From NCBI RefSeq assembly GCF_044324785.1, contig NZ_CP172127.1: a stretch of 64,000 bases of DNA; one strand, given 5' to 3'. Below the pieces are notes generated by a model, which ran no database searches, was not told the origin of the DNA, and worked only from the letters and a program-made list of their open reading frames with translations. This document shows positions 50,702 to 56,108 of the stretch, piece by piece. A program made the position numbers and the translations under genes. Source of the DNA: Escherichia coli (GTDB taxonomy: Bacteria; Pseudomonadota; Gammaproteobacteria; Enterobacterales; Enterobacteriaceae). The stretch's first letter is position 1, and each line of letters opens with the position of its first letter.

Positions 50702-51571
50702 TTAGCGATCGTCACTTAAATTAAGTAACTGCTTATCAAAACGCGATTCCTTCAGCGCTTCCTTGACCCGCTTCAAGTTATCTCTGAATTTTGCACCGCG
50801 TCGCAAAGTAAATCCTGTCGCCAGCACATCTATCACGGTCAGCTGTGCAAGTCGAGAAACCATGGGCATATAAATGTCAGTATCTTCCGGTACGTCGAGG
50901 GTAATTGCCAGCGTTGCTTCCCGGGCGAGCGGGGTACCCGCAGAGGTGAGGGCAATCACCATGGCGTCGTTTTCGCGAGCCAGCTGCGCCAGCTCGACCA
51001 GATTTTTTGTTCTTCCAGTGTGAGAAATCAGCACCACCACGTCTCCGTCGCTACAATTCATACAACTCATGCGTTGCAGCACGATATCATCGGAGTACAC
51101 CACCGGAACATTAAAACGAAAGAACTTATTCATCGCATCGTGGGCAACGGCGGCTGAAGAGCCTAATCCGAAAAAGGCGATTTTTTTTGCCTGAGTGAGC
51201 AAGTCGACGGCGCGGTTGATGGCAGATTTATCCAGTGAATGACGGACATGATCGAGCGTTGCCATTGCGGACTCAAATATTTTCCCCGTGTATGATTCAA
51301 CGCTGTCATCTTCATTGACGTTGCGATTAACATAGGGAGTGCCATTCGCCAGACTTTGTGCCAGATGAAGTTTAAAATCAGGAAAACCGCGCGTGTCCAT
51401 GCTGCGACAGAAACGATTCACCGTCGGTTCGCTAACATTGGCTTCCAGCGCCAGAGCAGCAATACTCGAATGGATCGCGTTATCGGGCGAAGCCAGAATG
51501 ACCTCGGCAACTTTGCGCTCTGATTTGCTCAAATGTTCCAGCTGAGACTGGATTTTTTCCAGCATATTCAT
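50702..51571 (-). CDS. hexR: RpiR-family transcriptional regulator HexR
   Basis: ORF track 289 aa; HTH + SIS domain. Confidence 0.93.
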
Positions 51572-51908: not shown

Positions 51909-53384
51909 ATGGCGGTAACGCAAACAGCCCAGGCCTGTGACCTGGTCATTTTCGGCGCGAAAGGCGACCTTGCGCGTCGTAAATTGCTGCCTTCCCTGTA
52001 TCAACTGGAAAAAGCCGGTCAGCTCAACCCGGACACCCGGATTATCGGCGTAGGGCGTGCTGACTGGGATAAAGCGGCTTATACCAAAGTTGTCCGCGAG
52101 GCGCTCGAAACTTTCATGAAAGAAACCATTGATGAAGGTTTATGGGACACCCTGAGTGCACGTCTGGATTTTTGTAATCTCGATGTCAATGACACTGCTG
52201 CATTCAGCCGTCTCGGCGCGATGCTGGATCAAAAAAATCGTATCACCATTAACTACTTTGCCATGCCGCCCAGCACTTTTGGCGCAATTTGCAAAGGGCT
52301 TGGTGAGGCAAAACTGAATGCTAAACCGGCACGCGTAGTCATGGAGAAACCGCTGGGGACGTCGCTGGCGACCTCGCAGGAAATCAATGATCAGGTTGGC
52401 GAATACTTCGAGGAGTGCCAGGTTTACCGTATCGACCACTATCTTGGTAAAGAAACGGTGCTGAACCTGTTGGCGCTGCGTTTTGCTAACTCCCTGTTTG
52501 TGAATAACTGGGACAATCGCACCATTGATCATGTTGAGATTACCGTGGCAGAAGAAGTGGGGATCGAAGGGCGCTGGGGCTATTTTGATAAAGCCGGTCA
52601 GATGCGCGACATGATCCAGAACCACCTGCTGCAAATTCTTTGCATGATTGCGATGTCTCCGCCGTCTGACCTGAGTGCAGACAGCATCCGCGATGAAAAA
52701 GTGAAAGTACTGAAGTCTCTGCGCCGCATTGACCGCTCCAACGTGCGCGAAAAAACCGTACGCGGGCAATATACAGCGGGCTTCGCCCAGGGCAAAAAAG
52801 TGCCGGGATATCTGGAAGAAGAGGGCGCGAACAAGAGCAGCAATACAGAAACCTTCGTGGCGATCCGCGTCGACATTGATAACTGGCGCTGGGCCGGTGT
52901 GCCATTCTACCTGCGTACTGGTAAACGTCTGCCGACCAAATGTTCTGAAGTCGTGGTCTATTTCAAAACACCTGAACTGAATCTGTTTAAAGAGTCTTGG
53001 CAGGATCTGCCGCAGAATAAACTGACTATCCGTCTGCAACCTGATGAAGGCGTGGATATCCAGGTACTAAATAAAGTTCCTGGCCTTGACCATAAACATA
53101 ACCTGCAAATCACCAAGCTGGATCTGAGCTATTCAGAAACCTTTAATCAAACGCATCTGGCAGATGCCTATGAACGTCTGCTGCTGGAAACCATGCGTGG
53201 TATTCAGGCACTGTTCGTACGTCGCGATGAAGTGGAAGAAGCCTGGAAATGGGTAGACTCCATTACTGAAGCGTGGGCGATGGACAATGATGCGCCGAAA
53301 CCGTATCAGGCCGGAACCTGGGGACCCGTTGCCTCAGTGGCGATGATTACCCGTGATGGTCGTTCCTGGAATGAGTTTGAGTAA
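51909..53384 (+). CDS. zwf: Glucose-6-phosphate 1-dehydrogenase Zwf
   Basis: ORF track 491 aa. Confidence 0.97.
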
Positions 53385-53410
53385 TATCTGCGCTCATCCT
53401 TTATGGTTAT

Positions 53411-53424
53411 TTTACCGGTAACAT
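53411..53424. promoter_or_regulatory. Perfect palindrome TTACCGGTAA (possible GntR-type operator) downstream of zwf / upstream of edd
   Basis: tttaccggtaacat contains a 10-bp perfect palindrome; the edd-eda operon is gluconate/GntR controlled; operator assignment is from memory and unverified. Confidence 0.4.
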
Positions 53425-53463
53425 GATCTTGCACAGATTGTAGAACAATTTTTACACTTTCAG

Positions 53464-53497
53464 GCCTCGTGCGGATTCACCCACGAGGCTTTTTTTA
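53464..53497 (+). terminator. Rho-independent terminator after zwf
   Basis: Stem gcctcgtg / cacgaggc followed by TTTTTTT. Confidence 0.75.
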
Positions 53498-53618
53498 TTA
53501 CACTGACTGAAACGTTTTTGCCCTATGAGCTCCGGTTACAGGCGTTTCAGTCATAAATCCTCTGAATGAAACGCGTTGTGAATCATCCTGCTCTGACAAC
53601 TCAATTTCAGGAGCCTTT

Positions 53619-55430
53619 ATGAACCCACAATTGTTACGCGTAACAAATCGAATCATTGAACGTTCGCGCGAGACTCGCTCTGCTTATCTCGCCCGGATAG
53701 AACAAGCGAAAACTTCGACCGTTCATCGTTCGCAGTTGGCATGCGGTAACCTGGCACACGGTTTCGCTGCCTGCCAGCCAGAAGACAAAGCCTCTTTGAA
53801 AAGCATGTTGCGTAACAATATCGCCATCATCACCTCCTATAACGACATGCTCTCCGCTCACCAGCCTTATGAACACTATCCAGAAATCATTCGTAAAGCC
53901 CTGCATGAAGCAAATGCGGTTGGTCAGGTTGCGGGCGGTGTTCCGGCGATGTGTGATGGTGTCACCCAGGGGCAGGATGGAATGGAATTGTCGCTGTTAA
54001 GCCGCGAAGTGATTGCGATGTCTGCGGCGGTGGGGCTGTCCCATAACATGTTTGATGGTGCGCTGTTCCTCGGTGTGTGCGACAAGATTGTCCCGGGTCT
54101 GACGATGGCAGCCCTGTCGTTTGGGCATTTGCCTGCGGTGTTTGTGCCGTCTGGACCGATGGCAAGCGGTTTGCCAAATAAAGAAAAAGTGCGTATTCGC
54201 CAGCTTTATGCCGAAGGTAAAGTGGACCGCATGGCATTACTGGAGTCAGAGGCCGCGTCTTATCATGCGCCGGGAACATGTACTTTCTACGGTACTGCCA
54301 ACACCAACCAGATGGTGGTGGAGTTTATGGGGATGCAGTTGCCAGGCTCTTCTTTTGTTCATCCGGACTCTCCGCTGCGCGATGCTTTGACCGCTGCAGC
54401 TGCGCGCCAGGTTACGCGCATGACCGGTAATGGTAATGAATGGATGCCGATCGGTAAGATGATCGATGAGAAAGTGGTGGTGAACGGTATCGTTGCACTG
54501 CTGGCGACCGGTGGTTCCACTAACCACACAATGCACCTGGTGGCGATGGCACGCGCGGCCGGTATTCAGATTAACTGGGATGACTTCTCTGACCTTTCTG
54601 ATGTTGTACCGCTGATGGCACGTCTCTACCCGAACGGTCCGGCCGATATTAACCACTTCCAGGCGGCAGGTGGCGTACCGGTTCTGGTGCGTGAACTGCT
54701 CAAAGCAGGCCTGCTGCATGAAGATGTCAATACGGTGGCAGGCTTTGGTCTGTCTCGTTATACCCTTGAACCATGGCTGAATAATGGTGAACTGGACTGG
54801 CGGGAAGGGGCGGAAAAATCACTCGACAGCAATGTGATCGCTTCCTTCGAACAACCTTTCTCTCATCATGGTGGGACAAAAGTGTTAAGCGGTAACCTGG
54901 GCCGTGCGGTTATGAAAACCTCTGCCGTGCCGGTTGAGAACCAGGTGATTGAAGCGCCTGCGGTTGTTTTTGAAAGCCAGCATGACGTTATGCCGGCCTT
55001 TGAAGCGGGTTTGCTGGACCGCGATTGTGTCGTTGTTGTCCGTCATCAGGGGCCAAAAGCGAACGGAATGCCAGAATTACATAAACTCATGCCGCCACTT
55101 GGTGTATTATTGGACCGGTGTTTCAAAATTGCGTTAGTTACTGATGGACGACTCTCCGGCGCTTCAGGTAAAGTGCCGTCAGCTATCCACGTAACACCAG
55201 AAGCCTACGATGGCGGGCTGCTGGCAAAAGTGCGCGACGGGGACATCATTCGTGTGAATGGACAGACAGGCGAACTGACGCTGCTGGTAGACGAAGCGGA
55301 ACTGGCTGCTCGCGAACCACACATTCCTGACCTGAGCGCGTCACGCGTGGGAACAGGACGTGAATTATTCAGCGCCTTGCGTGAAAAACTGTCCGGTGCC
55401 GAACAGGGCGCAACCTGTATCACTTTTTAA
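53619..55430 (+). CDS. edd: Phosphogluconate dehydratase Edd (Entner-Doudoroff)
   Basis: ORF track 603 aa. Confidence 0.97.
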
Positions 55431-55466: not shown

Positions 55467-56108
55467 ATGAAAAACTGGAAAACAAGTGCAGAATCAATCC
55501 TGACCACCGGCCCGGTTGTACCGGTTATCGTGGTAAAAAAACTGGAACACGCGGTGCCGATGGCAAAAGCGTTGGTTGCTGGTGGGGTGCGCGTTCTGGA
55601 AGTGACTCTGCGTACCGAGTGTGCAGTTGACGCTATCCGTGCTATCGCCAAAGAAGTGCCTGAAGCGATTGTGGGTGCCGGTACGGTGCTGAATCCACAG
55701 CAGCTGGCAGAAGTCACCGAAGCGGGTGCACAGTTCGCAATTAGCCCGGGGCTGACCGAGCCGCTGCTGAAGGCTGCTACCGAAGGGACTATTCCTCTGA
55801 TTCCGGGGATCAGCACTGTTTCCGAACTGATGCTGGGTATGGACTACGGTTTGAAAGAGTTCAAATTCTTCCCGGCTGAAGCTAACGGCGGTGTGAAAGC
55901 CCTGCAGGCGATCGCGGGTCCGTTCTCCCAGGTCCGTTTCTGCCCGACGGGTGGTATTTCTCCGGCTAACTACCGTGACTACCTGGCGCTGAAAAGCGTG
56001 CTGTGCATCGGTGGTTCCTGGCTGGTTCCGGCAGATGCGCTGGAAGCGGGCGATTACGACCGCATTACTAAGCTGGCGCGTGAAGCTGTAGAAGGCGCTA
56101 AGCTGTAA
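55467..56108 (+). CDS. eda: KHG/KDPG aldolase Eda
   Basis: ORF track 213 aa. Confidence 0.97.

Follow-up and report, generated by a model that had tools for sequence, protein, structure and literature searches.

Repressors of the LacI/GalR family can act through more than one operator. In the gal system, a repressor of this family uses the operators OE and OI, which stand on either side of the promoter and leave it uncovered, and OI lies inside galE; the three lac operators O1, O2 and O3 provide a further multi-operator parallel to the locus described here. GntR of E. coli is listed in the LacI family and acts as a repressor of gntT through a widely separated pair of operators with a 16-bp motif, for which Peekhaus and Conway reportedly proposed looping. 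At targets of the gntKU type, GntR sites with the same motif stand in tandem or overlap, with an offset of 13 bp at gntK of MG1655, and this arrangement is common for GntR regulons (PMC4052901).

GntR control of edd is already known. For the edd promoter P1, it was reportedly established by Egan et al. in 1992, and GntR sites at eddp are presumably listed in RegulonDB and EcoCyc. A GntR regulog of Enterobacteriales is contained in RegPrecise, where a RegPrecise-based supplement lists the regulog without individual sites. GntR has been described as a repressor of edd-eda (PMC13386637), and inactivation of gntR activates the Entner-Doudoroff pathway (PMC6637570). A full-text search for the operator sequences returned knockout primers only.

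We analyzed a stretch of 64,000 nucleotides of E. coli DNA, which is called the window in this text as a whole, and in which an initial annotation had noticed a perfect 10-bp palindrome, TTACCGGTAA, between zwf and edd. We put at about 0.8 the probability that this palindrome is the core of an operator, O1, for GntR at P1 of edd-eda, that O1 is paired with a second operator, O2, and that loop-type repression is the likeliest mode of action. O1 is in this respect an ordinary regulatory site of a known regulon. With gntT, edd would share GntR as the repressor, the 16-bp motif and the wide separation of the two operators, although the spacing is 141 bp at gntT (positions 1084 and 1225 of locus L082) and 222 bp at edd. 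The distal operator lies at about +125 to +130 in both, namely at about +127 in gntT (an estimate for which the -10 element was taken as TATCAT, following the preprint cited below) and at +129.5 in edd. Whereas the strong operator of gntT overlaps the -10 element, neither predicted operator of edd touches the core promoter, one being centered at -93.5, within the zwf 3' UTR, and the other being part of the coding sequence. In this bracketing of the promoter, with the inner operator within the first structural gene (edd codons 5-10), edd O1/O2 are like gal OE/OI. The gal loop is, however, about 113 bp in size and HU-dependent, while that of edd would be about 222 bp, and we know of no architectural protein for it. 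Unlike the gntKU type, edd of Enterobacteriaceae has one of its two sites on each side of the promoter.

Identification of the palindrome as a predicted GntR operator

The 401 bases at 53300-53700 were matched in 5,425 of 5,426 complete E. coli genomes with 95-99.8% identity, and the RefSeq annotation under these matches places zwf and edd there. The zwf-edd intergenic DNA differs from that of MG1655 (NC_000913.3) at 2 positions; MG1655 coordinates were obtained as 1988223 minus the window position. The features of the region are collected in Table 1. The Edd protein of the window (53619-55427) is 100% identical, over the best segment, to that of a representative of Escherichia whittamii (L002). 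The intergenic DNA (53300-53700) is closer to E. coli, with a best identity of 99.8% and none listed higher among the 5,426 complete genomes, and several intergenic positions of the E. whittamii locus differ from the window. On the other side of zwf, a 289-aa ORF (50702-51571, - strand) is divergent from zwf, and MG1655 annotates yebK, encoding a HexR-like regulator, at that place; local regulation of zwf in Enterobacteriales has been attributed to HexR.

Table 1. Positions of genes and of observed and predicted signals around the zwf-edd junction (+1 is the mapped edd-eda transcription start; a dot marks features without a strand)
Feature	Window position	Strand	Relative to +1	Remarks
zwf ORF	51909-53384			stop TAA at 53382-53384; name from the RefSeq annotation under the match
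O1, upstream predicted GntR operator, ATTTTACCGGTAACAT	53409-53424	.	-101 to -86, center -93.5	core TTACCGGTAA at 53412-53421; within the zwf 3' UTR
Flank GATCT	53425-53429	.		contains a Dam GATC site; abuts O1; invariant in the 61-sequence alignment
Spacer of fixed length and variable sequence	53430-53461	+		conserved A/T block AATTTTT at 53447-53453 (-63 to -57)
zwf Rho-independent terminator	53462-53496	+		stem 53462-53474 / 53480-53491, loop 53475-53479, T-tract to 53496
edd P1 -35, TTCACC	53476-53481	+		hairpin loop and first bases of the right arm; 17 bp ahead of the -10
edd P1 -10, TACACT	53499-53504	+		6-11 nt upstream of the mapped start
Cra (FruR)-like operator, ACTGAAACGTTTTTGC	53506-53521	.	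center +4.5	at edd P1
edd-eda transcription start	53510	+	+1	SMRT-Cappable-seq operon b1851/b1850, MG1655 1934713 (PMC6131387)
edd ORF	53619-55430			name from the RefSeq annotation under the match
O2, downstream predicted GntR operator, TTGTTACGCGTAACAA	53631-53646	.	+122 to +137, center +129.5	edd codons 5-10
eda ORF	55467-56108			

As the initial annotation had stated, the palindrome lies between the zwf stop codon (53384) and a genuine terminator, inside the reported stretch of 53405-53430. It occurs in a single copy in the window (53412-53421), in which 0.03 copies of this exact 10-mer are expected. Palindromy by itself is not beyond chance: 57 perfect 10-bp palindromes were observed in the window against about 62 expected, and 16-bp near-palindromes numbered 28 against about 24. 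What lies beyond chance is the exact 10-mer sequence, together with the match to the GntR operator motif and the conservation described below.

The 16 bp of O1 agree at 15 of 16 positions, that is, with one mismatch, with ATGTTACCGGTAACAT, which we take to be the operator consensus of E. coli GntR and which was then checked against known GntR targets of MG1655. This check located ATGTTACCCGTATCAT upstream of gntT and two overlapping sites, 13 bp apart, just before gntK. The GntR operator of gntT is reportedly traced, in a cell-free study, to Peekhaus and Conway in 1998. In that preprint the gntT 16-mer is cited as a GntR operator, and cell-free repression was relieved by gluconate (bioRxiv 10.1101/2023.01.10.523462). 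A GntR matrix was trained on the gntT and gntK sites and on sites upstream of edd in distant Enterobacterales, with O1 left out. With this matrix, O1 scored 22.2 bits and ranked first among 63,985 window positions. The mapped start of edd-eda follows 94 bp downstream, which places O1 in the regulatory region of a gene of the gluconate regulon.

LacI-type operators typically span 16 bp and have CG at their center. By its sequence, O1 is a full operator of this type, 16 bp with a central CG, and is predicted to be recognized by GntR. The palindrome had initially been likened to half-sites of the GntR family and linked to edd. The link to GntR and edd stands, with one mismatch to the consensus, the top matrix match and invariance in 61 sequences, but the family and the half-sites do not, GntR being a LacI/GalR-family protein and the site a full 16-bp operator. 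Operators of the winged-helix GntR family (FadR/HutC type) have only the name and a short palindrome in common with O1, and such an operator was rejected, since GntR is in the LacI family and the motif is the same as in the gntT and gntK operators.

The GATCT next to O1 is not accounted for by the GntR matrix and has no counterpart beside other GntR sites. An overlapping tandem GntR site formed through the invariant ATGATCT was considered and rejected, as the matrix scores were negative at offsets of 12-16; by matrix scores across the edd region of Enterobacteriaceae, no overlapping second GntR site was found at O1 or O2. No motif of CRP, HexR, KdgR, PhoB or IHF fits, by eye, in 53425-53475, and an Rfam search of the site gave no match to a known RNA element.

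Conservation was examined in loci collected by a scan for Edd, which with one genome per species yielded 80 loci. The 60 Enterobacteriaceae loci among them, from Escherichia, Citrobacter, Klebsiella, Enterobacter, Kluyvera, Buttiauxella, Cedecea, Mangrovibacter, Shimwellia and others, were analyzed together with the window (61 sequences). The comparison across Enterobacteriaceae, which the initial annotation had suggested as a check, found O1 invariant: the block of O1 and GATCT, TTTTACCGGTAACATGATCT, is identical in 61/61 sequences and lies 197-220 bp ahead of the edd ATG. On its zwf side the DNA is unalignable and differs in length, with 12 to 170 bp between the zwf stop and O1 in these sequences. 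Because the block is invariant beside unalignable DNA of varying length, a chance palindrome is ruled out. Canonical GntR sites are also present upstream of edd in several other Enterobacterales.

The edd promoter P1 within the zwf terminator

The terminator that had been placed after the palindrome proved genuine in its fold, its covariation and a mapped 3' end at 53496. A 126-nt stretch folds with -33.9 kcal/mol (z -4.9). Compensatory changes were found in 6 of the 12 stem pairs, and 92% of the cells were paired in comparison with 45-72% in slid controls. By SMRT-Cappable-seq of MG1655, the zwf transcript begins at 1936374 and has its 3' end at 1934727 (Yan et al. 2018, PMC6131387), and the latter corresponds to window position 53496, the last T of the tract. 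Among the reads that start at the zwf transcription start (n = 41), 14 stop at the terminator and 4 continue beyond it (PMC6131387).

The mapped edd-eda start falls 14 nt beyond the zwf 3' end. Upstream of this mapped 5' triphosphate end, P1 consists of sigma-70 hexamers (8/12 match) with 17-bp spacing, and the 17-bp spacer is made up of the right arm of the terminator and its T-tract. Although the stem arms covary, the loop sequence GGATTCACC, which carries the -35 element, is nearly invariant, and TTATTACACT at the -10 element is nearly invariant as well. With the zwf 3' end mapped to 53496 and the start of edd-eda to 53510, edd P1 is nested in the zwf terminator. A single 45-bp stretch has two functions here (53476-53504): it forms a structure in the zwf RNA, and its DNA is read as the edd promoter. 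A consensus scan of 53300-53700 for promoters and terminators reported neither. This is consistent with the 8/12 match of the promoter being below the 9/12 rule of the scan, and the terminator was missed by the simple scan probably owing to its bulged stem or to a fold in which the stem runs on into the T-tract.

Comparison with the mapped edd start, a second check suggested at the outset, puts the center of O1 at -93.5. The position of the palindrome upstream of a terminator had been regarded as unusual for a site that regulates edd. This position is no paradox, since an operator works at the DNA level and the terminator itself houses P1; the real oddity is the distance of O1 from the start. 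Between O1 and P1, the length of the DNA is kept: the distance from the O1 center to the end of the -10 element is 87-88 bp in 58 of the 61 sequences, and several columns of the spacer are only 33-56% identical. The conserved block AATTTTT in the spacer (53447-53453) is a possible UP element. A further promoter, TTGCAC at 53430-35 with TACACT at 53454-59, was proposed by eye and rejected. It is not conserved (MG1655 has TTGCGC and other genera differ), its transcripts would hit the terminator directly, and the start was mapped at 53510 instead.

The Cra-like site at P1 has 3 mismatches from GCTGAAACGTTTCAGC, which we take to be the Cra consensus, and the block CTGAAG-CGATTTTGCC at this site is conserved across genera. 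In a review, the Cra sites of edd-eda are described as overlapping or following the RNA polymerase site (PMC4393010), and the predicted operator fits this placement. At +4.5, it may provide promoter-proximal repression that is independent of GntR. Farther into the leader, the stretch at 53590-53613, right before the edd ribosome-binding site, is better conserved than the remaining leader. It reads GGACAGATAAAT-TTNAGGAG in most genera and CTGACAACTCAATTTCAGGAG in the window.

A predicted operator pair around P1 and its proposed action

The second rank in the window with the GntR matrix was held by O2 with 20.0 bits, and the third rank reached only 13.8 bits. In the 61 sequences, Leu6 of edd is encoded by TTA in 61/61, although six codons are possible, Val8 by GTA in 61/61, and Thr9 by ACA in 59/61, while Arg7 is encoded by CGC or CGG only. 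In contrast, the third positions of the codons neighboring O2 are just 36-79% identical. Over the whole of edd, 387 degenerate codons encode an invariant amino acid; 13 of them are fully frozen, and 2 of these 13 are inside O2. The frozen synonymous codons, which are rare ones, therefore point to O2 as a predicted operator that is written into the coding sequence.

O1 and O2 are thus located on either side of P1, 222 bp apart, and each of the 61 Enterobacteriaceae sequences contains the pair. The unusual distance of O1 from the start (-93.5) is explained by this partner in edd at +129.5. In other Enterobacterales (Serratia sp., Rahnella, Proteus, Xenorhabdus and Erwinia), one or two canonical sites lie 58-155 bp before edd, and where the sites upstream of edd are in tandem outside Enterobacteriaceae, their offset is 14-15 bp (L068, L076, L078, L080 and L081). 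A simple motif check did not find zwf upstream of edd in most of these other Enterobacterales, and their loci have no GntR site in the N-terminal edd codons; in several loci of Serratia, Yersinia and Rahnella, no GntR site was found within -500 to +300. Judging from these sequences, the split layout that brackets the promoter appears to be specific to Enterobacteriaceae, where edd follows zwf.

The distances between O1 and O2 fall into 209-214, 218-223 and 232 bp, and none was found at 215-217 or 224-231 bp. Testing the 12 distinct lengths for phasing gave R = 0.50 (P ~0.014), a result that is broad in period and based on phylogenetically non-independent lengths in clusters that spread by up to 6 bp, and helical phasing of the two operators is suggestive only.

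From the observed sequence match, conservation, transcript ends and paired layout, we infer the occupancy by GntR, the looping and the release by the inducer as follows. Because its center is at -93.5, O1 lies at too great a distance upstream to repress by simply occluding RNA polymerase, and because neither operator overlaps the core promoter, repression through O1 and O2 would need looping or a roadblock. Without gluconate, GntR dimers would be bound at both O1 and O2. These dimers would most likely associate, by which, much as with GalR at OE and OI, P1 would be enclosed in a loop of about 222 bp and initiation would be blocked, and O2 may additionally block elongation. Gluconate would free GntR, and P1 would then fire. 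The GntR genetics mentioned above fit this explanation; we know of no report of tetramer formation by GntR.

A more far-reaching proposal, which we regard as tentative and rather doubtful, is that in Enterobacteriaceae P1 in the terminator is silenced solely by the GntR-GntR loop of about 222 bp between the zwf 3' UTR and edd codons 5-10, that the loop also insulates edd from zwf read-through, and that this layout took the place of the promoter-proximal tandem sites found in other Enterobacterales. If this were true and had never been demonstrated, edd would provide a second natural bracketing loop of the gal type, and the evolution of the 5' leader would be constrained by helical phase.

Alternative readings and consequences

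The same site could instead work mainly as a roadblock, at which GntR bound in the zwf 3' UTR would halt the zwf polymerase before it reads through into edd-eda. O1 does lie within transcribed zwf DNA upstream of the terminator, and because zwf read-through exists (14 reads end and 4 pass), gating it by gluconate could pay. We nevertheless consider this reading unlikely. A roadblock needs no fixed 87-88 bp to the P1 -10 element, yet this spacing is kept in sequences in which 12 to 170 bp separate the zwf stop from O1; moreover, O2 would be better placed for the purpose, being downstream of both transcription sources, and the terminator already stops most transcripts. An operator acting on read-through had also been offered in the initial annotation, which was right in that zwf read-through exists but leaves the fixed spacing between operator and promoter unexplained. 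A roadblock is compatible with the loop model and is possible as a side effect of it.

That O1 is used chiefly by another regulator, either IdnR (GntH) or a protein that needs the GATCT flank, appears very improbable to us. IdnR is the closest paralogue of GntR, and the sites of the two are cross-recognized (PMC4052901), but the site in the idn region of MG1655 fits the matrix worse (15.4 bits) than O1 (22.2 bits), and IdnR would act there in addition to GntR rather than in its place. The invariance of GATCT, which the GntR matrix leaves unexplained, would suit a protein of the second kind, although none of the CRP, HexR, KdgR, PhoB and IHF motifs fits the flank by eye. The earlier suggestion of a different factor thus found no support except, possibly, from the paralogue IdnR. 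That the site has no operator role, being a chance palindrome or an RNA element in the 3' UTR of zwf, would agree with the chance rate of 10-bp palindromes (57 against about 62 expected) but is effectively refuted by the conservation pattern, in which O1 is invariant in 61 sequences of many genera beside freely varying DNA where a structural RNA would be expected to show covariation. The lack of an Rfam match, the match to the GntR motif and the twin site at +129.5 also speak against it.

As a GntR operator paired with O2, O1 would account for the induction of the Entner-Doudoroff pathway by gluconate in E. coli and related bacteria. Three signals are accommodated within 100 bp, namely the terminator, the promoter inside the terminator and the predicted repressor site upstream. 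The layout also bears on the design of constructs. Replacement of the "edd promoter" with the usual homology arms retains both GntR sites, as do the primers of PMC4172795. In reporter fusions that end before +140, O2 is lost, and recoding of edd codons 5-10 would destroy the predicted operator.

A second cluster of frozen synonymous codons was observed inside edd, at codons 485-502 (~55071-55124), where CCA, GAA, AAA, GTA TTA TTG GAC and TTC are kept. This cluster is located just upstream of a mapped transcription start for eda alone at 55117 (MG1655 1933106), and a further eda start is mapped at 55181 (MG1655 1933042). The sequence TATTAT at 55105-55110 looks like the -10 element of an internal eda promoter.
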